Shown here: piece by piece, positions 10,652 through 54,538 of the stretch
Layout: the number at the start of each line of letters is the position of its first letter
Numbering within the stretch: position 1 is the first letter of the stretch
NCBI GenBank assembly: GCA_035400945.1
Contig: DAONAJ010000003.1
Span: 88,676 to 152,675, forward strand
Source of the DNA: Spirochaetota bacterium
GTDB lineage: Bacteria; Spirochaetota; UBA4802; UBA5550
Length of the DNA: 64,000 nt
Direction of reading: 5' to 3'
Translations under genes and position numbers: made by a program
Notes under the pieces: generated by a model
Seen by the model: the letters and a program-made list of their open reading frames with translations, nothing else
What the model was told of the DNA's origin: nothing
Database searches by the model: none

Positions 10652-10675
10652 CTCATTCTCCCTGTGACTAAAATA

Positions 10676-11539: not shown

Positions 11540-12080
11540 ACGTCCGCCAGCTCTCGCAGATACGGAAGCACCCTGTCCTTGTCGGATACGACCGGGTCCT
11601 TCACCGGCCACGCGACGCCGATATCCGGGTCGTCCCACCTGATGCCGCCGTCAAGGGCCGCATCATATTCCTCGGTGCATTTGTAGAGGAGGTGGACTTC
11701 GTCCGTCAGTGCCAGGAAGCCGTGGGCAAAGCCGGGCGGGATAAAGAGCATACGATTGTTTTCATCGGAAAGTTCCAGGCTCAGCCAGCGCCGGTACGTG
11801 GGCGAGTCTTTCCTGATATCCACCGCCACGTCCCAGACCGCGCCCCGGATGACGCGCACCAGCTTCCCCTGGGCGCGGGGCGGACGCTGGAAATGAAGGC
11901 CGCGGATGACATTGCGGATTGACCGGGAATGGTTGTCCTGGACAAAGCGGAAGGGGATCCCGGCCCGCGTGAATTCGGATTCCTTGTATGATTCAAGGAA
12001 AAAACCGCGGTCGTCGGGAAACACCCGGGGCTCCACGAGGACAAGGCCGTTTATTTCAAGGTTTGTGAATGCAAACGGCA

Positions 12081-12081
<1 letters not shown>
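11536..12081 (-). CDS. rfbC: dTDP-4-dehydrorhamnose 3,5-epimerase
   Basis: 181 aa cupin; RmlC motifs (RGLHFQ, DNHSRS); start overlaps rfbA stop. Confidence 0.9.
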
Positions 12082-12956
<875 letters not shown>

Positions 12957-16266: not shown

Positions 16267-17892
16267 TTAAACCAATCTTCTTATAACGATAACGGTGCAG
16301 TCATCTCCCGGCGGCTTCAGTCCGAGAAACCGGTAGAATTCATCCATGATATGGTCCAGGATAGCCCGGGCGGGACCGGCAGGCCCCCCTTCCAGGGATT
16401 CAATGATACGCTTCTGGCCGTATTGTTCCGCGGATTCATTGACGCTTTCATCAAGACCGTCGGTATACAGGAGCAGGACGTCATCCTTGGCCATGCGGAA
16501 CCGGACAACGTCAAAATCGCCGCTGATGTCATCCATGCCGAGGATGGTCCCCCGCTGGTCCCTGTCCTGCGGCTTGACCATGCCGGCCCTTCCGGTGCCG
16601 GCCCTCCTCATCAGCAGGGCGTGATGGCCGGCATTGACGTATTCCACGCGGTCATCCCTGAACCTGAGCACGATGCCGCTCAGGTAGTTGTCGACGCTGC
16701 TGATGTCCGATTTCAGGTCAGCGTTCACATTCTCAATGACCTTGCCGAGACCGGCATCCTTCATCTGGGTGAAATTCCTCCCGATGATCGATTTCGCCAG
16801 GAGGGTGAAGATCCCCGCCGATATGCCATGGCCCGAAACGTCAAAGAGGGAAAGGCCTGCCAGCCTGTTGTCATGGACGTAAAAGTCATACAGGTCGCCT
16901 GAAACCCCCGCCTTGGGAAGATAGTCGAAGGCCACATCCCACTCGTCCGACGCCGGGGCCTCCCTGGGGAACAGGCTCTCCTGCACCCCGGCCGCCATGG
17001 CCATGTCCAGGGACGCGACGCGCTGGGCGTCCTCCAGCTCGGCGTTGGTATGGACCAGGCGGTCGTTGATAGCTTCGAGCTCCTCCATGGCGGCGTGGAG
17101 CTCCTCGGTGCGCTCCTCCACCTTCTTCTCCAGGTTCCTGTTCAGCTCCTCGACCTCGATCTGGAGCCGGACATAGCGGTTCATCAGAATCTGCGCCATG
17201 GAAAGTATTATGATGATATAGGCGTATTCAATGAGGTATATGAAGGGGTAAACCGCCGCCCCCACCAGGACATCATTGGCCGCGGCGATGAAAAATATCA
17301 CGAAGGCGACAAGGAGGGGGAGAATCTTCCTGTTCCCCGATTTCAGGTCTTTCACGATCAGGTAGAGTATCCACACATACCCCGCCATCATGGAGACATA
17401 CTGCACCAGATAGATGAGGCCCGGATCCACTTCCTGGTAGGTGATGTTGATGTAATTTCCAAGCCTTACCGGTTTCAGCATCGGGCGGTCCAGCGACAAC
17501 GTGAGTTCGTTCCTGACCGCCAGGCCGAGTATGAAAAGAACGAAAAAGTATCCGGCGATAACATAAAACAGCTTGCCGATCCGGTAATGCGAGAAATCAA
17601 AGAGGAACCAGAGCACCGCGATGCAGAGAAGGGCCAGACTGGCAAACTGGAACCGCTGCCAGAACATGCCCTCGGCCAGGGTCTGCGCGTTGTAGAGGCC
17701 CCCGCAGAAGAGGTCGTAGGCGGAAACGATAAAGCAGGTCACGGCGAAGGAAAGCTGTTCTCTCTCCGACCTTCTCCTGAAATACATCCAGAGGTAATAG
17801 AATCCCACGTAGAACGAAACGGACGCGGACATAAAAACAGGCACTGATAACCAGTTCACGGATGCGATCCCTCCTGTACAGCTCTGGTTCAT
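16267..17892 (-). CDS. 7TM receptor (7TMR-DISM-like 7TM, family B) fused to PP2C/SpoIIE protein phosphatase
   Basis: 541 aa; 7 predicted TM helices, coiled-coil linker, SpoIIE/PP2C domain (GDLYDFYVHDNRLAGLSLFDVSGHG...YTDGL). Confidence 0.8.
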   Translation of the reverse strand: MNQSCTGGIASVNWLSVPVFMSASVSFYVGFYYLWMYFRRRSEREQLSFAVTCFIVSAYDLFCGGLYNAQTLAEGMFWQRFQFASLALLCIAVLWFLFDFSHYRIGKLFYVIAGYFFVLFILGLAVRNELTLSLDRPMLKPVRLGNYINITYQEVDPGLIYLVQYVSMMAGYVWILYLIVKDLKSGNRKILPLLVAFVIFFIAAANDVLVGAAVYPFIYLIEYAYIIIILSMAQILMNRYVRLQIEVEELNRNLEKKVEERTEELHAAMEELEAINDRLVHTNAELEDAQRVASLDMAMAAGVQESLFPREAPASDEWDVAFDYLPKAGVSGDLYDFYVHDNRLAGLSLFDVSGHGISAGIFTLLAKSIIGRNFTQMKDAGLGKVIENVNADLKSDISSVDNYLSGIVLRFRDDRVEYVNAGHHALLMRRAGTGRAGMVKPQDRDQRGTILGMDDISGDFDVVRFRMAKDDVLLLYTDGLDESVNESAEQYGQKRIIESLEGGPAGPARAILDHIMDEFYRFLGLKPPGDDCTVIVIRRLV

Positions 17893-18033: not shown

Positions 18034-20973
18034 CTACGGCTTCCCTGCCGCCGGGCCGGCGCTGCCGGCAAAGGTGTCCCTGAACTTCTCGATCGTAATC
18101 CTGAACCGGCCTGAAAGCCTTCCCTCGCGGGCAGCGAGGCGGATGCCCAGGGCCATGTAGGCCGTGCGCATCGATATCTTGTAGGCGCGCGAAAGCCTGA
18201 TGGTCTCCGTCGTGGCCCACCGGAGTATGAATTTAAAGGCGTAATCGTACACCGTTTCGTCAACATGCCTCAGCTCGCCGTTCCAGGCGTCAGGGTGGAA
18301 CCTGCAGACCAGGTTGTGCACGATGGGATGGACGAACCCTTCCCGGTGCATGCGGCCGTAGCCGAAGACCTGGATCAGGCCGTTCAGCCATTCCAGATAC
18401 GAGGCCAGGACCCCGCCGGAATTGGCCAGGATATCGGGGAAGGAGATCCTTCCCATCTCGGTTAGGACGTCCTCCGCGTCGGCGGTCACCGGCCCGTTGG
18501 CGCCCTGGAGGACGTACTCCCCTTCCAGGACCCTCACGTTCACGGTCGTGCCGCGGCCGTCGCCGCGGTTGACGATGACGTCCTCGAGGGCGGAGGGGAC
18601 CACGACGTTCACGACCGCCGAAAGCGGCCGGATCGTGTCCGCCGGGATGAACTCGCCGCGGTCAAGGATTTCCCGGGGAGCGTCGGCGAGCCTGCATGTC
18701 CCGCTCCTGCAGAAGGCGTGAAGGCCGGCGATTCCCTCTATGCCCCGGTCGTTCGCCAGGGTGCCGCTGATGTCGGATATCATCTTTATCTTTCCCCCGA
18801 TGCCGTCGATGATCCCGGCAAAGGAGGCGCCCACCTTGCCGAAGCCCTGGACCGCGAAGGTGAGCATCCTGATGCGGCGGTGCGCCAGGCGGTAAAACTC
18901 TTCGTCGGAGGATAGTGCGTCGCCCACCCTGGCCGGATCGGCCCAGAGGGACGGGTCGCCGTAATCGCCGAAATTCTGCTGCGCCGCCAGTACCTCGACC
19001 AGGCCCCTGCCGGTGGCGCCGGTGCGGATCCGCAGCCCCCGCGCCCCGGGCTTCCCGGTTATGGAGGCGGCGGTATATCCTTCAAGCCTGTCGCGGTCGG
19101 AGGCGAGGGTTTTCACCAGCTCGCCGGAACCGGTGCTGATGCCGAAATTCTCTTTCAGGATGCGCGCCTCCGGGGAATCCGGGGCGAGGGAGCCGGCCAT
19201 GATGGCCTTCAGATCCCGGGAAGCGTTATCCGTTATGCGGTTGAACAGGATGCCGATCTCGTCCGCGCCGATGCCCACGTCCCCGGCGGGAACGTCGGAG
19301 AAGGGCCCCACGCCCGCCCGGTAATAAAGAAAATCGGCGTAGGCGTTGAGGACGTTTTCACGGGCCTCCTTCCCCTCCTCCGCCGGAAGGGAGCTGAAGC
19401 GCAGGTCTCCCAGGATGCCCCCCTTGCCGGCGGCGTAGAGGGGAATTCCCAGGCCGAGGGTCTTGAAGAGCATGTTGGTGGACAGGGCCCCCTCGCCGGA
19501 AAAGGAAACATGGTCCGCGTGGGCCCTGATCCCGCCCTTGCCGATCCCGATCCCGCTGATCCGGATAAAAAGGTACTGCCTGCCGGTCCGGGGCTCCCGG
19601 TAATCTTCATAATAAATGTCGCGGAAGGATATAAGGCGGATGATCTCCTCGTCCGTGAGGGAGCGCGCCGGGCGGTCCGCCTCGCGCTCCAGGGGCACCG
19701 TCGACGCAGTCACGATGTTCTTCAGGGTGGACCAGTAGTAATCGTTCTTCATCTCCGCCGTCGGGTTCAGGAGATAGTGCTTGATCAGGCCGAAGGTCTT
19801 TTCCCGTATGTCACGGTTCCCGTCGTTCAGCAGAAAGACCAGGGGTATCAGGTATTCCTTGCGCTTGTTCTTCTGCATCGCCTCGATCAGGTCAAGCTTC
19901 TCGTAATCCTTTGCGGTCCTGATGCGGTCCAGGAGCTCCCGTATCTCGCCCACCGAAACGGGGGCCGACTGGAGCAGCACCAGCCGGTTATAGAGCTCCC
20001 CTCTCAGGAAATCCTCAACCTCGGGCGAGAGCATCGCGGCCTCGACGCAGGTGGTGAGGGCAATGAAGGCGCGCCCGCCGATAAGGAACGTTTCGAAGTA
20101 CTGGCGGTTGATGGAAATGCCGCGGCGCTCGAAGATCCTGTTGATGGTGCTGAAGTTTTCCTGGAACTTCTCCAGGGGCAGCCAGACCCGGACCATCTTT
20201 TCGTCCGACCCGTCCTCCCGGTCGGGCATGACATCGATATACAGGTCTTCATCGTTGCGGATAAGGGAGCGGACCGACAGCCAGGGAAACAAATAGTTCT
20301 GGATATTGCGCTTTTTTGCATTATGGAGCGCCCTGGTCAAAAATCCGCTCCCGCAGGAGGCGATAAAGTCGCGGATGTCACCGGCGGCGACCGGCGGCGT
20401 TTGGCCGCGAAGCGCCTCCGCCATGAAGGCCGCGGCCCCATCACCTTTGCCGGCTTCGGCGGGCCGCGCCTCCTCCCTCTCGAGGATATAGAGCCTCCGG
20501 ATGTCCCTGTTCTCCGGGTGAAAGCGCACCAGGTACGAATAGAGGCGGAAGCGGCAGGGGCCGCCATCGCTCATGATGCGCTCAATGGCCGCCGTGGTCT
20601 TGCGGACAAGATCGGTCGTATCGGATATGAGGAAGAGGTGCTTGTCGGGAAAATCGCCGCGGACATCTATGTTCCGGTAACAGCCGTCGGCATCGCAGCG
20701 CTCCTTTTCCTGGTAACGGTTGTGCTCCAGGAGAAAAGAAACCTCCTCGATGCTGAGGGACAGCTCTTCCAGGTCACGGTAAAGATAGGGATAGTCCCAT
20801 GAATTGATTTTTGCGGCTATGCTCTCGAGCTCATGGATGATGGATTCGGGCGAAAGATCCGAATGGCTCACCAGGTGGTCATAGAGCCTCTTGACATCCT
20901 TGTCCGATATCAGCCGTGACTTGATCCGGTTCAATCTCTCAGCATAGGGATCCGCTCCGCTTTGTGCCAGCAT
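18034..20973 (-). CDS. Large Glu/Leu/Phe/Val-dehydrogenase superfamily protein (large NAD-GDH-like, about 110 kDa class)
   Basis: 979 aa; C-terminal half carries all GDH signatures (GIGKGGIR and AAGKGGILGD Lys motifs, DVPAGDVGIGADEIG, Rossmann VQGFGKVGASFAG, PDILANSGGVLASYLEW) with an internal insertion of about 35-40 aa; about 470 aa N-terminal region has no domain I recognise. Confidence 0.7.
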   Translation of the reverse strand: MLAQSGADPYAERLNRIKSRLISDKDVKRLYDHLVSHSDLSPESIIHELESIAAKINSWDYPYLYRDLEELSLSIEEVSFLLEHNRYQEKERCDADGCYRNIDVRGDFPDKHLFLISDTTDLVRKTTAAIERIMSDGGPCRFRLYSYLVRFHPENRDIRRLYILEREEARPAEAGKGDGAAAFMAEALRGQTPPVAAGDIRDFIASCGSGFLTRALHNAKKRNIQNYLFPWLSVRSLIRNDEDLYIDVMPDREDGSDEKMVRVWLPLEKFQENFSTINRIFERRGISINRQYFETFLIGGRAFIALTTCVEAAMLSPEVEDFLRGELYNRLVLLQSAPVSVGEIRELLDRIRTAKDYEKLDLIEAMQKNKRKEYLIPLVFLLNDGNRDIREKTFGLIKHYLLNPTAEMKNDYYWSTLKNIVTASTVPLEREADRPARSLTDEEIIRLISFRDIYYEDYREPRTGRQYLFIRISGIGIGKGGIRAHADHVSFSGEGALSTNMLFKTLGLGIPLYAAGKGGILGDLRFSSLPAEEGKEARENVLNAYADFLYYRAGVGPFSDVPAGDVGIGADEIGILFNRITDNASRDLKAIMAGSLAPDSPEARILKENFGISTGSGELVKTLASDRDRLEGYTAASITGKPGARGLRIRTGATGRGLVEVLAAQQNFGDYGDPSLWADPARVGDALSSDEEFYRLAHRRIRMLTFAVQGFGKVGASFAGIIDGIGGKIKMISDISGTLANDRGIEGIAGLHAFCRSGTCRLADAPREILDRGEFIPADTIRPLSAVVNVVVPSALEDVIVNRGDGRGTTVNVRVLEGEYVLQGANGPVTADAEDVLTEMGRISFPDILANSGGVLASYLEWLNGLIQVFGYGRMHREGFVHPIVHNLVCRFHPDAWNGELRHVDETVYDYAFKFILRWATTETIRLSRAYKISMRTAYMALGIRLAAREGRLSGRFRITIEKFRDTFAGSAGPAAGKP

Positions 20974-30093: not shown

Positions 30094-32262
30094 TTACAGC
30101 ACCTTGAAGGCATTGGTCACTCCCTCATAGGAGCTTATTTTACCGGTCCAGCCCGACTTCCAGTTCCCCTTGTGTCGGATCCGATACGTTCCCGGCTCCG
30201 CGTTTTTCGTGTGCCACGTTATGGTTATCTTCGAGTATGATATCCCGTCTCTCTGCCAGCGGTATGTTGTCTCCGGGTCCCAGTCGCGGGCCACGGGGAC
30301 GTAACTCCCGTTCACCAGCTTCTCGACGACCAGGAACGTGTCCTGCGTACGGAGATTGTTGTTGGGGTGGCCGCCCCAGAACTGCGCGCTTACCGTGTCG
30401 CCCCGGCTGTAGCTCGCGCCGGGCTGGGTTATGACATCGCCGAAATTCTTGAAGAGCGGCTTGTCGTCCAGCACCACCTTGGCGGTAAAATCCACGGTGA
30501 GCCCCGTCACGTCCTGGGGAGACGGGCCGGCGGGGACATCGCTGCCGTCAACGATGGCCCTGCAGAGCTTCGCGTATTCCTGGCGGAACGCAGCCAGTTC
30601 GTTGGGACCGAACTGCGTGCAGGCGCCCTCGTACCACTGCATCGCGTATTCCTCCCTGGTGGCAAGATAGGATGCATAGGAGTTGGCGAGGCTCGATACA
30701 ACCGCCATGTCCACGCCGAGTCCGGACAGGCCGGTCACCAGCGTGTCCTTGATGCGGCGTCCCGACATGGTGGTGACCTCGGCGGGAACGGCCGCTATGG
30801 CCAGGTTCCCTATCTTGAGCACCTGGAGCGGCATGACCTGCGGCGTCATGGTCGGCCCGTTGATATTGATATGGGCGATGCCGGTCGGGATGAGCACCGG
30901 TTTCTCGGCCTGGCATTTCTTGTATGCCGCGTCATTGGTGGCGGGCCACGCGAAGGCGAAGACGCCGCCGAGGAACGTGCTCAGGAACGTGCTGGCGGCA
31001 TTGTCGCTCCAGTTAAGGCTGGCAACGGTGGTCCCGTTCGGGAACAACGGCGACGGGCTCGGGTTGTCCGACGGGCTCCCGGCGGAGAAGGAAGCGCCCA
31101 TGCCGGCAGCGCACGTGGTGCATTTCGTCTCTTCCACGTACAGCGTCCGCATGTCCACCCATTCATGGCGGTAATCGATCGAGCCTGAAAGCTCCCTCGT
31201 TGCGCCGTTATACAGTTCTTTCGCCTTATTGTACTGCTTGAGGACCGCATTCTCAAGGCTTTTATTCTTTTCAAAGGTGACGTCAGCCGGGGCCTGGCCG
31301 AAGCCGATGTTGGGCGTCACGTCGCCAGCGCTGGCCTGGGCGAAGGCGGCGACGAAGGTCCTGGCGGCAAGGTAATCGGTTCCCTTGTCCTTTTCGAAAA
31401 GGTATGATGCCCACCCCTTGTTATCGCCGCTGATCAGTCTGTTTTCAGGCCCGATACTGTCGGGATGAACCGCGTACCAGTTCACCATGCCGATCTCCTC
31501 GCCGTCAAGGGTGACGAACTTCAGGAGGGTCATGGTTGTATCGGTAATGCTGCTGTACCGCGCCCGCTCCGCGGCGGGATTGTTGTTATAGGCGGTCTCG
31601 GCGCGGTTTCCGCCGCAGCCCTCGATGGCGCCCTGGGCCACGAGTATCCTCCCCCGCTTCAGGTTGTTATGGGCCCTGAGTATCGACTGGTAAATGCCGT
31701 CAACGATGGCGTTGAAGTTCTGCTTCACGAAGCCGTTGATGGTCACATCGTAGAGGAAATATCCCGAGTAACCCCCGGGGCCGTTGTGGGTGTGCGTGGC
31801 GGAAAGGAGAACGTTCTTCTCATTGTAATATTTCGCCAGATCCGCGTTCCCCGCGATTTTCTCGCAGACCTTGACTTTGACCATCTGGAAGAGCATCCCC
31901 AGGTCCGCGCTCACGAAAACGACCCGCTTGTCAGCGTCACCGATTATGTAGGCGCGCGAGCGGAGCCGCAGGTGAATGCCGGATGTCTTCTGCTCTGACA
32001 CGGCGTATCCCATCATGCCGATTTCAGCCGCTGGTCCGGTTATATCGTAGATCCCGGCGCCGATAAGGTACACGCTTCCGCCGGACCCGGTTGTTTCATT
32101 GGGTTGTATGGCGGTTCCGCCATTACTGTCTGTCTGGCCTGAATCCGATCCTAGAAGGGGAAAGGGATTGTTGTCTGAATCACTATCACAGCCTGGATAC
32201 ACCAGACATAGCATCGAAAAAAGAAAAACAGCCATGAAAAATTTTTTCTTACCATTGCCCAT
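30094..32262 (-). CDS. Neutral/alkaline ceramidase (lipoprotein)
   Basis: 722 aa; signal peptide with Cys lipobox; N-terminal block closely matches the neutral ceramidase signature (YLIGAGIYDITGPAAEIGMMGYA...GIHLRLRSRAYII...VVFVSADLGM...NVLLSATHTHNGPGGY). Confidence 0.8.
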   Translation of the reverse strand: MGNGKKKFFMAVFLFSMLCLVYPGCDSDSDNNPFPLLGSDSGQTDSNGGTAIQPNETTGSGGSVYLIGAGIYDITGPAAEIGMMGYAVSEQKTSGIHLRLRSRAYIIGDADKRVVFVSADLGMLFQMVKVKVCEKIAGNADLAKYYNEKNVLLSATHTHNGPGGYSGYFLYDVTINGFVKQNFNAIVDGIYQSILRAHNNLKRGRILVAQGAIEGCGGNRAETAYNNNPAAERARYSSITDTTMTLLKFVTLDGEEIGMVNWYAVHPDSIGPENRLISGDNKGWASYLFEKDKGTDYLAARTFVAAFAQASAGDVTPNIGFGQAPADVTFEKNKSLENAVLKQYNKAKELYNGATRELSGSIDYRHEWVDMRTLYVEETKCTTCAAGMGASFSAGSPSDNPSPSPLFPNGTTVASLNWSDNAASTFLSTFLGGVFAFAWPATNDAAYKKCQAEKPVLIPTGIAHININGPTMTPQVMPLQVLKIGNLAIAAVPAEVTTMSGRRIKDTLVTGLSGLGVDMAVVSSLANSYASYLATREEYAMQWYEGACTQFGPNELAAFRQEYAKLCRAIVDGSDVPAGPSPQDVTGLTVDFTAKVVLDDKPLFKNFGDVITQPGASYSRGDTVSAQFWGGHPNNNLRTQDTFLVVEKLVNGSYVPVARDWDPETTYRWQRDGISYSKITITWHTKNAEPGTYRIRHKGNWKSGWTGKISSYEGVTNAFKVL

Positions 32263-32439
32263 TCCGGACCCCCTTCAGGTATTACTATGATACCAGGTTT
32301 TTTAAATTATATTAAAAAAATAAACCAAACAGCCGGTTTGATATTTAATTTATATTATATTATCATTAAAAAGTCATATCAAAATCTGACCGATCAGTAT
32401 TTGAATAGTAGTCAAATCGAATGCGGGGTCAGAGTAAAT

Positions 32440-32478: not shown

Positions 32479-34722
32479 ATGAAAGTAAAAAAAACAAGTA
32501 TCTACACATCCCTTCAGGACTTAATAATAAAAAACTTTCACCTGAGCCCTGAAGCGATGATGGCTCAATTCTGTCAGGGGATCATGGATCTCTACCCTCT
32601 CCAGGGTGCGGCCATTGCCGCAAGAAGCGGGACAGGCTTTGCACTGCGCTATAGCCGAAACATCTTTAATGATAACCCCGACATGGAATTCGACTATACC
32701 GATGCCGATATCATTGTATTCTCAAAGGAAGATAAGCACTCCAAAAACGAGCTCTTCTTTATTCCCGATGGGGAGCGGACCATACTCCTGATACTGGCAC
32801 CATCCAAGAGAAACCGCATCAACGTCCCGGAGATACAGGACGCGGCCAATCTCCTTGCCAGGGTCCTGGTGCAGCAGAAGATGAAGGCCGATCTGCTCCT
32901 CAAGTACAGCAACTACAAGACCATATTCAAGAAAACCTCGAACCTCACGGCAATACTCAACACCCGCGGGGAAGTGGTGGAATGGAACGAGGCGGCGGAG
33001 GAGCTCTTCGGCCGGGACCTTGCCGGCACCCCCGTCAGCTACGTTGATTTCGTCCATGATGACGAACTGACGCGAACCAGGGAGCTGTTCTCCTCGATGT
33101 ACCGCGGCATCATGAAATACCGCAAAACCCTTGACCCGGAGCGGCTGGGGAATGATCCGGCCTACCTGAAAACGGCGCGGGAAACCATCATGGAGATGGG
33201 AACGAGCCAGGGCTTCACCAGGCTGACAAACCGGAGCGGCAGCAAGACCCTTGACGTTGATTACACCATCAGTCTCATCATCCCCCCTGGTTCGCTGGAC
33301 ATACTGGGCTGCATCGTCACCACCACCGATGTCACCAAGCGGAAGGTCATGCGGGAGCGGCTTGAGGAGTCGGAGCGGAAATACCGCGAGCTCTTCAACC
33401 TGGTGCCGCTCTTCTCGATGCTCATCGACACCTCGGGAAAAACCGTTGATTACAACTATGTTTCAATGGAAGACTACGGCCTTGACCCCGGACAGGAGGC
33501 CCTGTCATACATGGATTTCATCCACGAGGAAGACCGCAACCGGGCCGCGTCGCTGTTCATCAACCTCTACACCAGCGCGATCGAGATTAAGAACCGCTGG
33601 ATCAAGGACAAGGCCATCACCATGGATGAATGCGCCAGGGAACTGCGTTCGCTCCGCATCAGGAACGAGCCGCTCCGTCTGCTGAGCCGGGGGAAAGACA
33701 AGTATTTCGAGACCCAGTTCAGCGCCAGCCTCTGGATCGGCGAATCAGACCTCGAGATAAAGGGCGCCCTCCTCTCCGCCATTGACGTGACGGAACGGAA
33801 CAATTACCGGCGGAAACTGGAGGAATCGGAAAAGAAATACCGGGAGCTTGTCGAGGAGAAGACCAGGGACATCATCTTCTCCCTCGACAACAGGGCCCAG
33901 TTCATCATGGTCAACAGCAACATCAGGGAAAAGCTCGGCTACCCGGAGGATTCAGTCATCGGGAAGCACATCATCGACATCCTCTACAAGGACCCCATCG
34001 ACAAGAACCAGATAAACCGGGAAACCTTCCTGGAGAACATCCACCGCGTCCTCGATGACCGCGTCCCCGACGTTCGCTTCAAGGCGGTCTGCGACCACAA
34101 GTTCCTCGGTGAACCGGTGACCCTCCAGTTCAAGCTGGATCCCATCATCGAGAACGACGCCGTCATCGGCATCATGGGCTTCGCGTCGGAGATATCGGAC
34201 GATCCCCTGCGGGAATATCTGGAAAAGGAAACCCTGTCCTACACCATCGACAACCGTCTTACCATAGCGGACGAGGTGAGCTTCCGGATAACGCGCAATC
34301 TGCAGAAGTACCTGCCCATCGGCAAGATAAGCCTGCTGCGCCTCGGCATCAGGGAGATGATCATCAATGCCATCGAACACGGGAACCTGGGCATAACCTA
34401 CGAGGAGAAGACCCTGGCCCAGAAGAACCAGAGCTACCATGATTTACTCCGGGAGCGGCAGATGAGCACCGAGAACCGCCACAAGAAGGTACGCATCGAT
34501 TACCAGTTGAATGAAGAAGCCATAACCTACACCATCAGGGACGAGGGCAAAGGCTTCGACTACCGGAAATTCATCAAGCTCAAGGTCAAAGCACTGAACG
34601 ACCAGATGCTGCAGCACGGCCGCGGCATCCTCATCACCCGGTCCGTTTTTGACCAGATACAATATAACGAAAAGGGAAACGAAGTTCACCTGGTGGCTTT
34701 TTTAAAGAAGAATACCGATTAA
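32479..34722 (+). CDS. Multi-PAS sensor with C-terminal RsbW/SpoIIAB-like GHKL ATPase (anti-sigma-factor-type Ser kinase) domain
   Basis: 747 aa; at least three PAS-like repeats each followed by the coiled-coil signature (RLEESERKYRELF; KLEESEKKYRELV), C-terminal HATPase_c_2-like block (GIREMIINAIEHGNLGI...TIRDEGKGFD...GRGILITRSVFD). Confidence 0.7.
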   Translation: MKVKKTSIYTSLQDLIIKNFHLSPEAMMAQFCQGIMDLYPLQGAAIAARSGTGFALRYSRNIFNDNPDMEFDYTDADIIVFSKEDKHSKNELFFIPDGERTILLILAPSKRNRINVPEIQDAANLLARVLVQQKMKADLLLKYSNYKTIFKKTSNLTAILNTRGEVVEWNEAAEELFGRDLAGTPVSYVDFVHDDELTRTRELFSSMYRGIMKYRKTLDPERLGNDPAYLKTARETIMEMGTSQGFTRLTNRSGSKTLDVDYTISLIIPPGSLDILGCIVTTTDVTKRKVMRERLEESERKYRELFNLVPLFSMLIDTSGKTVDYNYVSMEDYGLDPGQEALSYMDFIHEEDRNRAASLFINLYTSAIEIKNRWIKDKAITMDECARELRSLRIRNEPLRLLSRGKDKYFETQFSASLWIGESDLEIKGALLSAIDVTERNNYRRKLEESEKKYRELVEEKTRDIIFSLDNRAQFIMVNSNIREKLGYPEDSVIGKHIIDILYKDPIDKNQINRETFLENIHRVLDDRVPDVRFKAVCDHKFLGEPVTLQFKLDPIIENDAVIGIMGFASEISDDPLREYLEKETLSYTIDNRLTIADEVSFRITRNLQKYLPIGKISLLRLGIREMIINAIEHGNLGITYEEKTLAQKNQSYHDLLRERQMSTENRHKKVRIDYQLNEEAITYTIRDEGKGFDYRKFIKLKVKALNDQMLQHGRGILITRSVFDQIQYNEKGNEVHLVAFLKKNTD

Positions 34723-40027: not shown

Positions 40028-40261
40028 CTACTTGATGGCCGCGCATTTGTCGCCGCACGCCTTTGCGTTCTTTTCGCATTCAGCTTTCTTTTTAGCGTCG
40101 ACTTTCTTGGTCTTCGCATCGGTCGCCTTGCTGATGCAGGCCGTCTTCTCGGCCGCGCACTTGTCGTTGCAATCCTTCCGTTTCTTCTCAACGCTCGCGC
40201 AGGAGACCAGGCCCGCCATAAAAACGGCAGCCATCATGACAATTATTGTTCTTTTCATCAA
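40028..40261 (-). CDS. Small Lys/Cys-rich lipoprotein
   Basis: 77 aa; signal peptide and lipobox (AGLVSC); mature part rich in K and regularly spaced Cys ([12 protein letters not shown]...[15 protein letters not shown]). Confidence 0.5.
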
Positions 40262-40644
40262 TTCCTCCGGTTTGGGTAATTTTGTTGCTATTTCGTATCA
40301 GCCGGCGATTTTATTCAAGAATTTTTTACCATCCACTTCCCGGACACACGGATTATTTTACTACCATCGTACGCGGCATCAGGGTCCTGCGGAACCGCAC
40401 AACACCTGTCCGAAACAGCATGGCGCGACAACTTCCAATTTCGGCACAAAAATGTCCGGGAAAAGATCCAGTAATTGAATTACCTCCATCACTGTGTGCT
40501 CTTTCAATCTATTCTGCTCTCCTTTCAATCAGGTTTTGCCTTGACTCTAGCGCGGGTGGTTTGCTAGCCTGCATGGAGAGGTTTCAAGAGTTTTATAAAG
40601 AATCTCTGTCCTGTTTAAACATAAAAAATCAAAGGGGTAGGCAA

Positions 40645-41502
40645 ATGGAAATCAAGAAAATTTGTGTGCTGGGCGCCGGCCTGATGGGCAACGGAATCGC
40701 GCAGGTCTGCGCCCAGGCCGGGTACGAAGTGGCCATGCGCGATATCGAACAGCGTTTTGTCGACGGCGGGATGAACACCATCAAAAAGAACCTGGGCCGC
40801 GACATGGAAAAGGGCAAAATCACCAAGGAGCAGATGGACGCGGTCCTGGGACGCATCAAGCCCACGGTGGACCTGAAGGAAGCGGCGGCCGGTGCTGATG
40901 TGGTGGTCGAGGTCGTCATTGAAGTCATGGATGTGAAGAAAAAGGTCTACGAGGAGCTCGAAAGCATTGTCCCGGCCCATTGCCTCTTCTTTACCAACAC
41001 ATCGGGCCTGAGCATCACAGAGATGGCCGCCGCGACCAAAAGGCCCGACAAGGTCATCGGCACCCATTTCTTCAACCCGGTGCCGGTCATGAAGCTCCTG
41101 GAACTGATCTGCTGCCACCAGACATCCGAGGAGACCCTGGCCGTGGCAAAGGAATGGGGAAGGAAAATCGGCAAGGAGGCCATTATCGTAAAGGAAGCGC
41201 CGGCCTTCGTCGTCAACCGCATACTCTGCACTATGATCAATGAAGCCTTCTTCACCCTGGATGAAGGCCTGGCCACGGCAGAGGACATCGACAAGGGCAT
41301 GATGCTGGGATGCAACCACCCCATCGGGCCCCTGGCGCTGGGCGACCTGATCGGCCTGGACACCCTGCTCCGCATCATGGAGGGCCTGCACCGGGAGCTG
41401 GGAGACAAGTACCGCCCCGCACCGCTCCTGAGAAAACTTGTCCGTGCGGGAAACTACGGCCGCAAGACCGGCCGCGGAGTATACGACTACAGCAAAAAAT
41501 AA
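40645..41502 (+). CDS. hbd: 3-hydroxybutyryl-CoA dehydrogenase (3-hydroxyacyl-CoA dehydrogenase family)
   Basis: Start set at [21 protein letters not shown] with RBS AAAGGGG; NAD-binding and C-terminal 3HCDH domains; the track ORF has a long spurious upstream extension. Confidence 0.85.
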
Positions 41503-45089: not shown

Positions 45090-45680
45090 TTATTTTGCCG
45101 TCACCAATTCGGCCAGGCACGCCTTTGCCGAATCTTGCAGCCTGGAAATATTGTCTTTCACGTCACGCCGCTGCCCTTCATAGGTCCCGGCGCTGTATTG
45201 CCTGTTCACCGTAAAAAAATAAAACATGGTGCCGCCTTTGTCTGGAAGCGGGGCCCTGAGGGTCTTCACGGTCATCAGGATCGCCTTCTCCGCCTCTTTA
45301 AAGTACGCGGAACATTTCTCCATCTGTTTTCCCTTTCGGCCCGGAGCCGAGGCGGCTCTCCCGGCGCTGTCAACCATCCGCGCGCTCCCGTCTTTTTTCA
45401 CGACCAGCAGCACCAGCGCATCGCCATCCCATGTCTCCATCAGAACATGCACCAGGTCGTTGTCCTCGATATTATCGCTGAGGATGACGGAAGCCTCCGA
45501 GAAAATTTTCTCCCGCGCCTGCATATAAGCCTCGGGCAGACGGGAGGGATTCTCACCCTCTTCGATGGAGTGCGCGGTTATGGCCGCGGCCATCAGGCAG
45601 ACAAGAACGATTGCAATCTTCAATTTTTCCCCTGTCCGTTTATGTCTTACAGTGACAATGCCCCGTCCATTATCACACAT
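45090..45680 (-). CDS. Hypothetical membrane-anchored/secreted protein
   Basis: 196 aa; N-terminal hydrophobic segment (KIAIVLVCLMAAAITAHS); no known domain; overlaps rluD stop by 8 nt (operonic). Confidence 0.45.
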   Translation of the reverse strand: MCDNGRGIVTVRHKRTGEKLKIAIVLVCLMAAAITAHSIEEGENPSRLPEAYMQAREKIFSEASVILSDNIEDNDLVHVLMETWDGDALVLLVVKKDGSARMVDSAGRAASAPGRKGKQMEKCSAYFKEAEKAILMTVKTLRAPLPDKGGTMFYFFTVNRQYSAGTYEGQRRDVKDNISRLQDSAKACLAELVTAK

Positions 45681-46611
45681 GGAGCCGCTCTGCCTTATCG
45701 ATGAATTCCCGCATGTGCTCAGGGATGTCCGCCGAAAACGACATGGTCCCCCCCGTGGCAGGATGGGTGAACTCGAGCCTCACCGAGGCGAGGAGGAGAT
45801 ACGGCACCCGGTACTTCTCCCATTTCTTGGAATAGATGGGGTCCCCCACGATGGGGATGCTTGCGGAGGAGAGGTGCACCCGGATCTGGTGGGTCCTGCC
45901 GGTATGGAGGTCGATGTCAAGGAGCGTGAACACGCCAAGGCGGGAGTTGATCACCCTGCTCACCGTGAACTCCGTCAGGGCCTCACGGCCGCTCTCGTCG
46001 ATTGTCATCTTGTGGCGGTACTTCCGGTGCCTGCCGATGGGAAGGTCGATAAGGCCGTGGGCCTCCTTCGGCTTTCCCACGACCAGGGCGGCGTACTTCT
46101 TCCGCACCCTGCGCCCGCTGAACTCGGCGGTGAGGAACTGGTGCGCGGCGTCGTCCTTGGCGACCACCATCAGGCCGGCCGTGTCCTTGTCAAGGCGGTG
46201 CACGATGCCGGGCCGGGCAATGCCGCCGATGGAGGAAAGGTCTTTGATGTGATACAGGAGGCCGTTCACCATGGTGCGGTTCCAGTTTCCCGGCCCGGGA
46301 TGCACCACCAGGCCCGCCTGCTTGTTGACCACGACTATCGACCTGTCCTGGTAAACGATATCCAGGGGGATGTCTTCCGGCTCAAGCTCCAGCGGTTCCG
46401 GCTCGGGGATGACCACCACGATCCGGTCGTCGGTCTTGACCTTGTAGTTCGGCTTTATCGTCTTTTCGTTGACGGTAATGCTGCCGCCGTGGATCAGCTT
46501 CTGGATGTAGCTCCGCGACAGGTCCTGCTCGAGGGCAAGGGGCAGGAACTTGTCAACACGCTCCAGGTTGTTTTCTTCCGGCACAATCAGTTCTATGGGT
46601 TCAGCGCTCAT
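45673..46611 (-). CDS. rluD: RluA-family 23S rRNA pseudouridine synthase (RluD-like)
   Basis: 312 aa; N-terminal S4 domain, catalytic motif HRLDKDTAGLMVVAKDD. Confidence 0.85.
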   Translation of the reverse strand: MSAEPIELIVPEENNLERVDKFLPLALEQDLSRSYIQKLIHGGSITVNEKTIKPNYKVKTDDRIVVVIPEPEPLELEPEDIPLDIVYQDRSIVVVNKQAGLVVHPGPGNWNRTMVNGLLYHIKDLSSIGGIARPGIVHRLDKDTAGLMVVAKDDAAHQFLTAEFSGRRVRKKYAALVVGKPKEAHGLIDLPIGRHRKYRHKMTIDESGREALTEFTVSRVINSRLGVFTLLDIDLHTGRTHQIRVHLSSASIPIVGDPIYSKKWEKYRVPYLLLASVRLEFTHPATGGTMSFSADIPEHMREFIDKAERLHV

Positions 46612-47059
46612 GTATGAAGGTCAATCACTCCCTGTTCTATCGGCCCAGGCCGGTGTTTTGTATACTATTTCGTCATGGCGGTAAATTGCAATCACGTTTC
46701 ATCCATAGTGCGATAATATTTTTCATGGCAAAAAGAGTATTGCTTCGCTGCGCCCGTGCTAACACGCTGATGGAGGTATATCAAAAAGCATCAAATGGCC
46801 CCCATCCATGGGCAGGGTGAGGACTGGATACATCAACCACTTCTTCAGCATTGAAATAAAAAACCCGCCCCGGCCGGATTGATCCCGTTGAAAACTGTTT
46901 TTCATTTTGATACTTCTCTCTTTTTTGTTTTGACATTCAACCCGCGGTCCTGTAATGGTGCTATCTAAAATACAGAAACACATTCACCCCATTTGCACTT
47001 GTCGAACCGCCGGCACCGCCGCAGGCGGAGCAAATACTATTTGTTATTCGGAATTGGAT

Positions 47060-48049
47060 ATGAAACGGCATACTCGAACCATTTTACCGGTCCTGTTTTT
47101 CCTTCTCGTCATGACCGGGACCGGCGCCATGGCCGACACCGTCAGGCTTTACGATGGCACGGTCCTGGTGGGCAAAATCATCAGGGAAGACACGTCGGCC
47201 ATAACCTTCGCGAACTCCTACGGCACCTTCAAGATAAAACGGATCAGGATTGACGATATCTACAAAACCGAATCATACGATGAAGACATCGAAATCCACA
47301 GGAAGATGAAGTTTCCGGTAAACCTGTATAAAATCAGGGTCAATTACATTGCCGGGCTGAACAGGAAAGAGGGAAAGAAACGCGCGCTCATCCTTTTAAA
47401 AAAGGACAGGGAAAAGCGGGAAGCCAGACTGAAGGCCGAGAAAGAAAAAGCCGACAAGGAAAAAGCCAAGAAACAGGCAAAGGCCCGCGACAGGAAGAAA
47501 CGCCGAGGAGAAAGGCGCGGGCCCGTGACCGGGGACCACTGGACCAGCGGCCGCCTCTCCTTCTCCGGTGCTTTTCACTACAACCTGGGCAGCTCCCACA
47601 GCGCCCTTCCCCACGGGTATGCCGGCTATTTCGCCCTTGACCAGGGGCTGGACTTCGCCTCCGGCAGCCGCCATCCCATGATCCCGGGCCTCAGGTTCGA
47701 AGGCGGGTACATCTATTTCAAGAGATCATCGTACATGCTGTCGGGGTATCTCTTCGGCGGTGGGCTCATGTGGGCCTTTCCGTCCATGAAAAACAGCTGG
47801 GGCTGCTTTGTCCTGGCCCTCATACCCGGAGCCTCCTACCTGGAGGCGAAAATCAGCAGCTCCTTTCCCGGGATCGACGGCGGAACTTCCCGGGGCTTCA
47901 ACTTTTCCGCCCAGGCGATTTTCGGATACCAGAAATCCTTCGGCGTGTTCTCGATGTTCATCCAGGCACGGTACATGTACATCAAGGGGATGCGCTCGTA
48001 CTTTCATTCAGTCGCGGGAGAATGCGGATTCGGCTTCAATGCCTGGTAG
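47060..48049 (+). CDS. Hypothetical secreted/outer-membrane protein with KE-rich coiled-coil and C-terminal aromatic beta-rich domain
   Basis: Start at MKRHTRTILPVLFFLLVMTGTGAMA (signal peptide); Lys/Glu/Arg-rich segment; C-terminus ends GFGFNAW (OMP-like terminal aromatic). Confidence 0.5.
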   Translation: MKRHTRTILPVLFFLLVMTGTGAMADTVRLYDGTVLVGKIIREDTSAITFANSYGTFKIKRIRIDDIYKTESYDEDIEIHRKMKFPVNLYKIRVNYIAGLNRKEGKKRALILLKKDREKREARLKAEKEKADKEKAKKQAKARDRKKRRGERRGPVTGDHWTSGRLSFSGAFHYNLGSSHSALPHGYAGYFALDQGLDFASGSRHPMIPGLRFEGGYIYFKRSSYMLSGYLFGGGLMWAFPSMKNSWGCFVLALIPGASYLEAKISSSFPGIDGGTSRGFNFSAQAIFGYQKSFGVFSMFIQARYMYIKGMRSYFHSVAGECGFGFNAW

Positions 48050-48068: not shown

Positions 48069-49022
48069 CTATTGTTCCTCCTCCACCTTCTCGATGAGGC
48101 CCCTGCGCTCCATGTCCTGCAGGGTGTTGAGCTCGCTCTCTATGGCCTTTCTGGCTTCCGGGTCTTCAACAGTTTCCACATCGATCACCTGGTCTTTGCC
48201 GTTCCCGATCGACCCGGCCGGCGCCGCCTCCTCCCCGGTTTTCCGCGGTGTTTCGGTCTTTTCACCCCGGGCTTTTTCAGCCGATGAACCGTCCTCAAGA
48301 CTTTCCGGTTTTGATATGGAGAGCCCTTTTTTCCCTTCCTTCTCTTTCGGGACCGTTGAATAGGGCTCCGGTTCCTTGCGCTTCACGGCCACGGGCCGCT
48401 TTTTCTGCTCCGGCTTCTTTTTAAGTGCAACCGGTTTTTTCGGCCCACCCTTACCGGGCGCGACCTCTTTCTCTTCACCGGGCCCGTTCATGGCCTCCCC
48501 GGCCTCTGTTCCGGTGTAATCGACGCTTGACATCACCTCGTTGAAAACGTCCGTGTATCGCGAGAAGGAGCCGATGGGGGCCCTGCACTCGATGACCAGG
48601 GTGTTGCTGCCATACCGCGAGAACATGGTGCGCTGGAGCATCCTCACGCCCCGGGAATAATAATCGAAAACAACGACCTTGACCGTCACGTTGCCGCCTG
48701 CGGCCAGCTCCTTCGTCTCGATGATCTTCCTGAAGCCCTGCCCGGTTCCCGGGCCCAGCAGTTTCCTCCAGACGCTCAGTTCCTGAGCGCCCTCCCCGCC
48801 GGCGGGCAAAGCCGTGACGGCTATCTCGGTTCCGGCCGCGCGGGCGCGCCTGAAGATCACGTGATGCCGGTCCCCGTCTTCCCGGTAATTCTTTTTCCAG
48901 TCCGCCGGGGCGCAGATGCTGTAGTGGAAACCGGTGTCGCTGTACCTCCTGCACTCGGAGGCACGGGCCATTGATGGCAACAGCGCAACAATTACGAAGG
49001 GAAGAAGGGCAACGTTTTTCAT
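48069..49022 (-). CDS. Hypothetical secreted protein with KE/P-rich C-terminal tail
   Basis: Start at MKNVALLPFVIVALLPSMARA (signal peptide); globular N-domain then low-complexity acidic/lysine tail; convergent with the previous gene. Confidence 0.5.
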   Translation of the reverse strand: MKNVALLPFVIVALLPSMARASECRRYSDTGFHYSICAPADWKKNYREDGDRHHVIFRRARAAGTEIAVTALPAGGEGAQELSVWRKLLGPGTGQGFRKIIETKELAAGGNVTVKVVVFDYYSRGVRMLQRTMFSRYGSNTLVIECRAPIGSFSRYTDVFNEVMSSVDYTGTEAGEAMNGPGEEKEVAPGKGGPKKPVALKKKPEQKKRPVAVKRKEPEPYSTVPKEKEGKKGLSISKPESLEDGSSAEKARGEKTETPRKTGEEAAPAGSIGNGKDQVIDVETVEDPEARKAIESELNTLQDMERRGLIEKVEEEQ

Positions 49023-49240
49023 AGGGGTCAAACATCCATGTCTACTAGCATTAAGGACTACCGCCATCCCGGGGATCGTATTTATGAAAGCAAAAACATT
49101 GGTGCGAGTCAATAACATTTTCCCCCCGCCCCGCCGGGACATAAAAAATAGGTTGATTATTCCCTGCCGGTGTGGGACATTTTTCCAGGGACGGCGGACC
49201 CGTCCCCGTTTCCCGGCAACACACCCAGGGAGGTGGCATC

Positions 49241-50782: not shown

Positions 50783-51415
50783 ATGCCCAAAACCAGCAGA
50801 AGCGCCGAAGAAGTGGCGCAGGTCCGGGAGCATATTCTTAGCGCGGCCATCGGGATCATAGCCGACAAGGGATTCAGCCGCCTGAGCATGCGCAGCCTGG
50901 CGTCGGCCATCGGCATGACCGCCGCCAACATCTATAATTATTACAGCAGCAAGGACGAGCTGTACCTTGACATCCAGACCGCCGGATTCCAGGAACTCTA
51001 CGCCCGCTTTGCCGGTGCGCGGGACCGTGAAAAAACGCCGCTGAAAAAAATCGCGGCGATCATGAAGGAATATATATCATACGGAACATCCAACCCGGAC
51101 AGCTACAATATCATCTTCAGCATGGATACGCCCAAGTACGCCGATTACCGCGACACGCAGATCGAGCCGGTTGCCTACGCTGAAAAGAAAGCGGGGCTGG
51201 ACCTCATAGAGATAACCCGCCCCGTCGTGGCGGAGCTTCTGAAAAAGCGCGGGAAGCCAGCCGCCGGGGCATGGAAAAAAACCGTGCAGGCGTGGATCAT
51301 GCTCCATGGCATCGTAAGCCTCATGAACAGCCGCGTCCTCCAGGAGGTGGCGGATGACAGCTCCCGATTCATAGACGAAAGCGTGAAAGACGTTGTCAAT
51401 TACCTGCTCTCATAA
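50783..51415 (+). CDS. TetR/AcrR family transcriptional regulator
   Basis: 210 aa; N-terminal TetR HTH (ILSAAIGIIADKGFSRLSMRSLASAIGMTAANIYNYYSSKDELY); 26 bp upstream of the GRE gene. Confidence 0.85.
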   Translation: MPKTSRSAEEVAQVREHILSAAIGIIADKGFSRLSMRSLASAIGMTAANIYNYYSSKDELYLDIQTAGFQELYARFAGARDREKTPLKKIAAIMKEYISYGTSNPDSYNIIFSMDTPKYADYRDTQIEPVAYAEKKAGLDLIEITRPVVAELLKKRGKPAAGAWKKTVQAWIMLHGIVSLMNSRVLQEVADDSSRFIDESVKDVVNYLLS

Positions 51416-51441
51416 AACCTGACGCTACCGGGAGACCGCCC

Positions 51442-54399: not shown

Positions 54400-54538
54400 C
54401 TCATGCCGTGGGGCAAAACAAAGGATCAAGTATTGCCGGCAATTGTACGATAATACGGTATGCATGCCGCCGACGGCGGCACCGGGAATTGATCATTACG
54501 TTTTCCAGGCAGATTGACACTATTCCGGAGAAACCGCG

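Follow-up and report, generated by a model that had tools for sequence, protein, structure and literature searches.

Results

The ceramidase gene and its product

We have analysed a stretch of 64,000 nucleotides, here called the window (positions 88,676 to 152,675 of contig DAONAJ010000003.1, assembly GCA_035400945.1), from a Leptospirales-related member of the Spirochaetota, a kind of organism known from anaerobic digesters and sediments. It carries on the minus strand, exactly at 30094-32262, an ATG-to-stop open reading frame (ORF) of 722 residues, which an initial annotation of the window had taken for the gene of a lipoprotein neutral ceramidase. We have found that this gene shares a conserved promoter box with an adjacent operon for a kinase, an aldolase, an aminotransferase and a transporter of the major facilitator superfamily (MFS), a gene for a membrane-bound regulator lying between the two (Table 1), and we propose that its product is a lipid-anchored ceramidase that probably scavenges ceramides.

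The family assignment holds. Both domains expected by the initial annotation were matched in a Pfam search over the full length of their profiles: PF04734 (neutral/alkaline non-lysosomal ceramidase, N-terminal) with E = 5.7e-153 (profile positions 1-509 of 509) and PF17048 (ceramidase C-terminal domain) with E = 5e-52 (1-169 of 169). Among solved structures, the best match is the neutral ceramidase of Pseudomonas aeruginosa (2zws, E = 1.9e-135), in a single alignment running from residue 65 to residue 722, and human ASAH2 (4wgk) is matched with E = 5.3e-117. Judged by sequence similarity, these matches are far beyond chance.

The zinc ligands, for which a comparison with the Pseudomonas structure had been proposed, are all present (His157, His266, Glu495 and Tyr532). 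Together with His159, Arg220 and Tyr544 they fill the zinc-ligand and catalytic positions in HMMER alignments and in a MAFFT alignment of 121 sequences, and all seven positions are invariant in 120-121 of the 121 homologues. In sequence order they correspond to His97, His99, Arg160, His204, Glu411, Tyr448 and Tyr460 of the Pseudomonas enzyme, of which we take His97, His204, Glu411 and Tyr448 to be the zinc ligands and His99, Arg160 and Tyr460 to be catalytic, roles that were reportedly set out in the 2009 structure paper of P. aeruginosa ceramidase. In the human enzyme the zinc ligands His194, His303, Glu540 and Tyr579 align with His157, His266, Glu495 and Tyr532, the catalytic His196, Arg257 and Tyr591 with His159, Arg220 and Tyr544, and Ser354 with Thr316; the human numbers are the chain index plus 98, which reproduces His196, Arg257 and Ser354 of a published review (PMC6952831).

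The N-terminus reads MGNGKKKFFMAVFLFSMLCLVYPGC and then DSDSDN, and has the order n-region, h-region and Cys-containing region: a basic n-region (MGNGKKK), a hydrophobic core (FFMAVFLFSMLCLVY) and the sequence PG-C ending at Cys25. The tether that follows is 38 residues long here and varies in length among lipoprotein-type homologues. A cysteine after (S/P)G is kept in full-length close homologues from Spirochaetota and in Archangium and Hyalangium (Myxococcota), and classical lipoboxes are found in Oligoflexus (VACGQ, with the cysteine after VA) and Leptospira (LTCSD, with the cysteine after LT). An Asp/Ser/Gly-rich tether is also kept in the close homologues from Spirochaetota, Myxococcota, Oligoflexus and Leptospira. 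Homologues of the Smithella type have a plain Sec signal (PAPGFA-STYLI) and no tether. The proline at position -2 of the lipobox is non-canonical by the standard of Escherichia coli; spirochaetal lipoboxes are looser than those of E. coli. A signal peptide with a conserved cysteine at the end of its h-region fits the earlier claim and supports the reading of the ceramidase as a lipoprotein, which is likely to be extracytoplasmic. We consider it very probable that the gene encodes a functional amidase of the neutral ceramidase family, predicted to work outside the cell.

The transcription unit and the shared box

The ceramidase gene has its own sigma-70-like promoter and its own intrinsic terminator, of sequence GAAGCCGCCG-TCAC-CGGCGGCTTT followed by TTTTTTGTTT, and is thus read as monocistronic. 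An operon with the downstream AraC gene was considered and is ruled out by this terminator.

The -35 hexamer of the promoter is also the end of a conserved box of ~31 bp, with the consensus TCAwwTwCTGAyynrTCwGwwTTTGATAwGA(C), which holds the near-palindrome CTGATC-GATCAG and finishes in the -35-like hexamer TTGATA. There are exactly two matches to this box in the 64-kb window (0.00 expected from 100 shuffles), one at the ceramidase promoter and one upstream of the first gene of the operon. Twelve related loci have the box in the corresponding position, and among 120 loci compared (referred to by L numbers) it is found only in the Spirochaetota clade and at the same two promoters. An alignment of 20 copies has 17 invariant columns, while downstream of the box the two classes of promoter show no relation in sequence. 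The locus L005 retains the box before its ceramidase gene although the operon is not adjacent there. We slightly favour the view that the ceramidase gene and the adjacent operon are regulated together.

A second conserved element, (A)ACCGTCYGT...GG(T) followed by a T-run, is located in the 5' leader of the ceramidase gene (32290-32330, minus strand), downstream of the -10 hexamer, and at the same place in L001-L005, L012, L016, L023 and L041. The predicted folding energy of the leader is no better than that of shuffled sequences (z = 0.14), so this element may be a protein-binding site and not an RNA structure.

Table 1 Positions of the features discussed (coordinates of the 64,000-nucleotide window)
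Feature	Position	Strand	Basis or remark
Neutral/alkaline ceramidase coding sequence, 722 residues	30094..32262	-	ORF, Pfam and PDB matches
Putative signal peptide with lipobox-like VYPG-C, residues 1-25	32188..32262	-	sequence read directly
Low-complexity Asp/Ser/Gly/Thr tether from anchor to catalytic domain, residues 26-63	32074..32187	-	outside both Pfam domains
Catalytic domain PF04734, residues 65-561	30580..32070	-	Pfam and PDB alignments
C-terminal Ig-like domain PF17048, residues 563-721	30100..30576	-	Pfam
Ribosome-binding site GAAGGGGG, 6 nt before the ATG	32269..32276	-	upstream sequence
Sigma-70-like promoter TTGATA-17-TATAAT, 11/12	32354..32382	-	match to consensus only
Conserved box, copy 1, TCAAATACTGATCGGTCAGATTTTGATATGAC, ending in the -35 hexamer of the ceramidase promoter	32373..32404	-	motif match and conservation
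Conserved box, copy 2, TCATTTTCTGATTGGTCTGTTTTTGATAAGAC, upstream of the FGGY kinase gene	26627..26658	-	motif match and conservation
Intrinsic terminator, 10-bp stem (7 GC) then T-run	30003..30036	-	58 nt past the ceramidase stop codon
Seven-transmembrane (7TM; HisKA_7TM)-GAF-AraC helix-turn-helix one-component regulator	28204..29913	-	Pfam; candidate regulator of the box
FGGY-family kinase, xylulokinase-like, first operon gene	24891..26492	-	Pfam and PDB matches
Class II aldolase/epimerase-family protein, FucA-like	24043..24735	-	Pfam and PDB matches
Class-III (GSA-aminomutase-like) pyridoxal-phosphate aminotransferase, Lys321 invariant	22396..23886	-	Pfam, PDB, alignment
FLVCR-like MFS transporter, 412 residues	21016..22254	-	PDB match and alignment
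979-residue protein with Glu/Leu/Phe/Val dehydrogenase domain	18034..20973	-	42 nt after the MFS gene
START-domain proteins, paralogous	59153-59851, 59952-60629	-	E = 3.6e-07, 1e-07
Glycyl radical enzyme, PFL2/dehydratase group	51442-54399	+	PFL-like E = 7.3e-166; TetR at 50783-51415

The adjacent regulator and operon

The neighbours that are conserved with the ceramidase gene differ from the lipid-type genes named by the initial annotation. They are the 7TM-GAF-AraC regulator and the operon, and the order ceramidase, regulator, FGGY kinase, aldolase, aminotransferase, MFS transporter is found in nine loci, eight from Spirochaetota genomes and one from a metagenome. The regulator gene is syntenic with the ceramidase gene in L002, L003, L004, L010, L012, L013, L016, L023 and L041, and a SpoIIE phosphatase gene is found between regulator and kinase only in the window and in L003. 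None of the operon proteins, nor the regulator, reaches an NCBIfam equivalog cut-off.

The solved structures nearest to the aminotransferase are GSA aminomutases (E = 2.6e-67), with a match to D-phenylglycine aminotransferase as well. The aldolase keeps a FucA-like glutamate and three histidine zinc ligands, with aspartate at the position of FucA Tyr113. The best solved relatives of the transporter are human FLVCR2 and FLVCR1 (E = 1.8e-32 and 3e-27), with the D-galactonate transporter DgoT at 1e-4. The substrate site of FLVCR2 has been described as including Trp102, Gln191, Phe324, Gln447 and Tyr325 (PMC11168923). The first four correspond to Trp31, Gln121, Phe244 and Gln364 of the transporter and are kept in 38-40 of 40 related transporters from such operons; the fifth is Asn245 here and asparagine in all 40. 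The gene for the 979-residue dehydrogenase-like (GDH-like) protein trails the MFS gene in L004 and L041 too, and this protein is a possible sink for the amino group.

Signalling genes are dense in this part of the window, with a 7TM-SpoIIE phosphatase (16267-17892), a SpoIIE phosphatase (26866-28197), the regulator (28204-29913) and, at 32479-34722, a triple-PAS protein with an RsbW-like HATPase_c_2 domain. This density suggests partner-switching regulation typical of Leptospirales.

Distribution of the ceramidase

The initial annotation described bacterial members of the family as sparse, which is not what we find. Among the candidates scored, 1854 match at E <= 1e-20, and the family comprises 1054 clusters (50% identity) at E <= 1e-30 and 2900 at E <= 1e-10. 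NCBI and JGI already apply the name neutral/alkaline ceramidase to close homologues, and those from Spirochaetota, Myxococcota, Oligoflexus and Leptospira bear the name ceramidase. The protein is a further member of a known and well-populated family and the gene alone is ordinary: taken by itself, one more neutral ceramidase annotated by homology, in an uncultured anaerobic spirochaete, is of little consequence.

The exact protein is absent from a collection of 5.8 billion proteins, in which the best match reaches 90%. The closest locus is that of a Spirochaetes metagenome-assembled genome (MAG) with 93% identity, and other Spirochaetota and Leptospirales MAGs have 64-87%. Homologues of 76-78% identity are found in Archangium, Vitiosangium and Hyalangium (Myxococcota) and in Smithella, of 71-73% in Oligoflexus and of 67-71% in Gammaproteobacteria MAGs. 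A neighbour-joining tree places the proteins of Myxococcota within the clade of Spirochaetota, with the Smithella type as its sister, which indicates horizontal transfer of the ceramidase. The occurrence of nearly the same enzyme (71-78% identity) in Spirochaetota, Smithella, Myxococcota and Oligoflexus points to a recent horizontal spread of what would be a scavenging trait. Nothing on a neutral ceramidase in Leptospira was found in the literature searched.

In Smithella-type loci (L008 7244-11983 and L007 2750-5443) a DUF2147 gene is followed by two tandem ceramidase paralogues, which are 52% identical overall and have nearly identical signal peptides, suggesting gene conversion at the 5' end. 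In the Archangium minus locus L036 (1-1866), genes for an HlyIII-family protein and for an Exo_endo_phos protein of 449 residues are located 6-8 kb from the ceramidase gene, a loose sphingolipid-related grouping.

The operon as a module in other lineages

The aminotransferase belongs to a very widespread and highly conserved family (all 8000 candidates scored fall below E = 1e-30) and has relatives of 65-70% identity in Clostridia, Desulfobacterales and Syntrophales. In 80 metagenome loci of this family the core of the module consists of TetR, aldolase, aminotransferase, MFS transporter and kinase, with a RuBisCO-like protein in 10 loci; the genome contexts sampled agree with this core. The related loci carrying the module are L031-L035 and L039-L120. 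One of them, L117, has a classical AraC regulator in place of TetR, so that an AraC-type regulator of the module is not unusual. The accessory genes vary and a ceramidase is usually absent, which identifies the module as an independent, uncharacterised catabolic unit. No description of a module of RuBisCO-like protein, FGGY kinase, class II aldolase and aminotransferase was found in the literature searched.

We also considered the module as a general lipid-linked unit and rejected this, as lipid genes are sporadic in the 80 loci: a ceramidase in L041 and L090, phospholipase A1 (PLA1) in L040, and, in L039 and L033, Aas-like acyltransferase/AMP-binding genes accompanied by one for a HAD phosphatase. 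In L040 (8404-14266) the aminotransferase and FGGY kinase genes are flanked by those for an outer-membrane PLA1 (PF02253) and for a 330-residue Exo_endo_phos protein, which is of the size of sphingomyelinase C or phospholipase C.

There are two further lineages in which a ceramidase gene stands beside a related module. In Smithella (L008, L009) and a related MAG (L007), the DUF2147 gene and two ceramidase genes are divergent from MFS-TetR-kinase-aminotransferase-RuBisCO-like protein, the aminotransferase being 46-47% identical to that of the window. In L090, a TetR(TetR_C_15)-ceramidase pair, whose ceramidase is 33-36% identical to that of the window, is divergent from kinase-aldolase-aminotransferase-aldolase-MFS. 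A ceramidase is paired with a TetR_C_15 regulator in Leptospira kobayashii as well. The catalytic residues are kept in all of these ceramidases, and we count the Smithella-type and L090 juxtapositions as independent of the one in Spirochaetota. A class I/II aminotransferase gene (PF00155, 430 residues), whose product may be an alpha-oxoamine synthase of the serine-palmitoyltransferase kind, lies two genes from the distant ceramidase gene of L090, at 1071-2360.

Discussion

A proposed route

By analogy with the Pseudomonas and human enzymes, zinc held by His157, His266, Glu495 and Tyr532 would activate a water molecule, and the amide would be polarised and protonated by His159, Arg220 (placed by Thr316) and Tyr544. 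Outside the cytoplasm, exogenous ceramide would thus yield a sphingoid base and a free fatty acid, the latter presumably serving as a carbon source for a community of the Leptospirales type or a syntrophic one. The 7TM-GAF-AraC membrane protein would be the probable regulator acting at the shared box. We put the probability of this reading, a lipid-anchored extracytoplasmic ceramidase that would scavenge ceramides and be co-regulated with an operon for the import and catabolism of an amino alcohol, at roughly 0.8.

The module may act either on a sphingoid base with a C18 chain or on a small amine resembling ethanolamine. In the scheme that we envisage, the FLVCR-like transporter would import the amino alcohol, and the aminotransferase would turn the 2-amine into a 2-ketone (a CH2OH-CO-CHOH-R "ketose"), the GDH-like protein recycling the amino acceptor. 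The FGGY kinase would phosphorylate C1, and the FucA/AraD-like aldolase would cleave or rearrange the resulting ketose-1-phosphate analogue, by a retro-aldol reaction, to dihydroxyacetone phosphate and a (fatty) aldehyde. The chemistry is speculative, and this cleavage would require a 4-hydroxyl, as in bases of the phytosphingosine type. Isomerisation or cleavage of the 1-phospho-2-keto compound could in other lineages fall to the RuBisCO-like proteins.

That the operon breaks down the sphingoid base itself is a doubtful proposition, and we regard as equally tentative the wider idea that the ceramidase catalyses, outside the cell, the entry step of an undescribed, horizontally shuffled regulon for the catabolism of sphingoid bases or amino-alcohol head groups. 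Ceramides from eukaryotic debris or from sphingolipid-making bacteria are a plausible source of fatty acids in digesters and sediments. The fate of the toxic sphingoid base in bacteria is an unsolved problem of the field: even for Pseudomonas, the product of its degradation was described as unknown as of 2025 (PMC11893366). If the idea were true, it would give the first complete candidate route for bacterial degradation of sphingoid bases; its candidacy rests on the shared box, the recurrence of a ceramidase beside such a module in three unrelated arrangements and the wide spread of the module in anaerobes. If it fails, the evidence still points to an uncharacterised module of amino-alcohol catabolism. 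We regard the box and the recurring module as a useful lead, short of an established finding.

Evidence against, and alternatives

Several observations weigh against our reading. With regard to the enzyme, its score with the NCBIfam equivalog NF041649 ("neutral ceramidase") is 412.3 bits against a cut-off of 1200, so that by this model it is not an equivalog; the model is evidently narrow, the public names of close homologues being the generic "neutral/alkaline ceramidase". The amidase motif NxGDVSPN reads SAGDVTPN here, with five of the six core positions identical and serine replaced by Thr316. This position (human Ser354, Pseudomonas Ser250), where the initial annotation expected a serine nucleophile, is threonine in 110 and serine in 11 of the 121 close homologues. 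In the human structure Ser354 merely positions and stabilises Arg257 and has no role as a nucleophile (PMC6952831). With its role limited in this way and the hydroxyl retained by threonine, the substitution is best read as conservative and not as a refutation. With regard to the box, the consensus was derived from the sequences that it matches and includes the -35-like hexamer; part of the likeness could be generic promoter architecture or the site of a global regulator. With regard to the operon, the flagellar genes fliK-flgD-flgE are as syntenic with the ceramidase gene as the operon is, and synteny within the clade may be inherited. The ceramidase gene is solitary in the Archangium, Oligoflexus and Leptospira loci, and the module is nearly always without a ceramidase in the 80 aminotransferase-family loci. 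In some of those loci its neighbours are sugar-type (CUT1) ABC systems, a GH31 glycosidase, aldehyde dehydrogenase or AFOR, or a type I phosphodiesterase next to a protein resembling 5'-nucleotidase. Finally, enzymes of the FGGY and FucA types and a transporter pocket like that of FLVCR point to a small polar substrate over a C18 lipid.

The alternative that survives best is that of a stand-alone ceramidase which scavenges fatty acids, the adjacency being inherited synteny and the box a generic or global element with no meaning for a pathway. Long-chain fatty acids are the main carbon source of Leptospira-type spirochaetes, and the monocistronic gene, the solitary ceramidases, the usual occurrence of the module on its own and the equal synteny of the flagellar hook genes all fit. 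Set against these are the confinement of the box to two promoters in 64 kb and in the 120 loci, its retention before the L005 ceramidase although the module is elsewhere, and the two further lineages that place non-orthologous ceramidases beside related modules in other arrangements. We consider this alternative possible, at rather less than even odds.

It is distinctly unlikely that the enzyme acts in the cell on an aminolipid or N-acyl amino alcohol other than ceramide, such as an N-acylethanolamine or N-acyl amino-polyol, whose small polar amine would be imported by the MFS transporter and degraded by the operon. Every PF04734 member known to us to have been characterised biochemically is a ceramidase, and the protein has ~45% identity to the Pseudomonas enzyme over its full length with every catalytic and pocket-base residue kept. 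This is to be weighed against a transporter that resembles choline/ethanolamine carriers in its Trp/Gln/Phe/Gln pocket, downstream enzymes of the sugar-phosphate type, the missed equivalog cut-off, and the association of the module elsewhere with PLA1, Exo_endo_phos, Aas-like acyltransferase and type I phosphodiesterase, that is, with turnover of glycerophospholipid head groups. As an alternative for the operon itself, the pocket and the sugar-type enzymes favour ethanolamine, serinol or a similar small amino alcohol; the ceramidase would then be co-regulated as part of a broader scavenging of lipid head groups, or would act on a different N-acyl amine.

Slightly less probable again is a role in the turnover of the organism's own sphingolipids, as in membrane remodelling. 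Myxococcota and Bdellovibrionota-type bacteria, in which close homologues are found, make sphingolipids; against this, no gene resembling serine palmitoyltransferase (PF00155) is found among the ORFs scanned in the window, and export on a long tether suits an external substrate.

The remainder of the window

The initial annotation also placed the ceramidase gene in a lipid-themed neighbourhood. In a Pfam scan of ~60 window ORFs of at least 150 residues, covering most of those that looked like genes, part of this was borne out. The two START proteins are encoded in tandem and both have Sec signals, an unusual thing for a spirochaete to export, and are located 27-30 kb from the ceramidase gene. 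A 3-hydroxyacyl-CoA dehydrogenase is encoded at 40246-41502, 8 kb away and past fliK-flgD-flgE and a class I tRNA synthetase gene. Of the proposed SCP2-glycyl radical enzyme fusion, the glycyl radical enzyme stands and the SCP2 match is below threshold (E = 0.06, 14 bits against a cut-off of 21.3). No acyl-CoA synthetase or other AMP-binding gene is found among the ORFs scanned. Between the ceramidase and these genes lie the PAS-HATPase_c_2 protein, fliK-flgD-flgE, the tRNA synthetase, LuxR- and TetR-type regulators, a histidine kinase and unannotated ORFs; given the distance of 8-30 kb and the intervening genes, the lipid-type genes form no unit with the ceramidase gene. A lipid-metabolism island comprising the ceramidase, the START proteins, the glycyl radical enzyme, an acyl-CoA synthetase and the dehydrogenase is therefore very improbable, as although most of these genes do occur in the window they are on both strands and the shared box is not at their promoters.

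The best solved match of the glycyl radical enzyme is 2f3o, with glycerol dehydratase, Hyp dehydratase and CutC scoring similarly. The weak SCP2-like match falls in an N-terminal extension of ~200 residues, no activating-enzyme gene was identified beside the gene, and a 1021-residue antisense ORF (51400-54465) is its shadow. Three successive ORFs of 350-364 residues (45565-46617 and 46955-48049, plus strand; 48069-49142, minus strand) have no Pfam match even at E <= 1. A complete dTDP-rhamnose set (an RmlB-like dehydratase, RmlD, RmlC and RmlA) is located at 9581-12956 on the minus strand.

Comparison with known systems

The enzyme belongs to the same two-domain family as P. aeruginosa CerN/PaCD (2ZWS, 2ZXC), with the same zinc and catalytic residues, and both are secreted. 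It differs from CerN, which is a plain secreted enzyme, in its probable lipoprotein anchor and 38-residue tether, in having Thr316 in place of Ser250 of the GxxSPN motif, in ~20 extra residues around positions 400-450 and in its host, an anaerobic environmental spirochaete where that of CerN is a pathogen. Compared with human ASAH2 (4WGK), it is without the 30-residue eukaryotic subdomain and without the mucin box and type II anchor, and has threonine for Ser354.

Of the operon proteins, the transporter keeps the Trp/Gln/Phe/Gln equivalents of the choline/ethanolamine transporters FLVCR1 and FLVCR2 (SLC49); it differs from FLVCR2 in having asparagine for Tyr325 and in being a bacterial protein of 412 residues. 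The fumonisin catabolism of Sphingopyxis (FumD/FumI) follows the same logic, in that a hydrolase frees a sphingoid-like 2-amino-3-ol which a class-III aminotransferase converts to the 2-ketone. The match of the window aminotransferase to the aminopentol aminotransferase 6HBS (E = 7.9e-28) is weaker than that to the GSA aminomutases, and it sits in a module of kinase, aldolase and RuBisCO-like protein which we take the fum cluster to lack.

In P. aeruginosa, the AraC-family regulator SphR is reported to induce cerN and genes for the metabolism of sphingosine (PMC3900636, PMC5150637, PMC11893366). This sphingosine-responsive regulon (cerN, sphA, sphBCD) is the closest analogue at the level of the system, with the gene of an AraC-family regulator accompanying a neutral ceramidase. 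The likeness extends to partner genes that could here dispose of the sphingoid base and to the presence of one box in both promoters. The differences are that the candidate regulator of the window carries a 7TM and GAF sensor and that the partners here are a cytoplasmic kinase, aldolase and aminotransferase with an MFS transporter, where those of SphR are the periplasmic oxidoreductase/cytochrome c proteins SphC/SphB.

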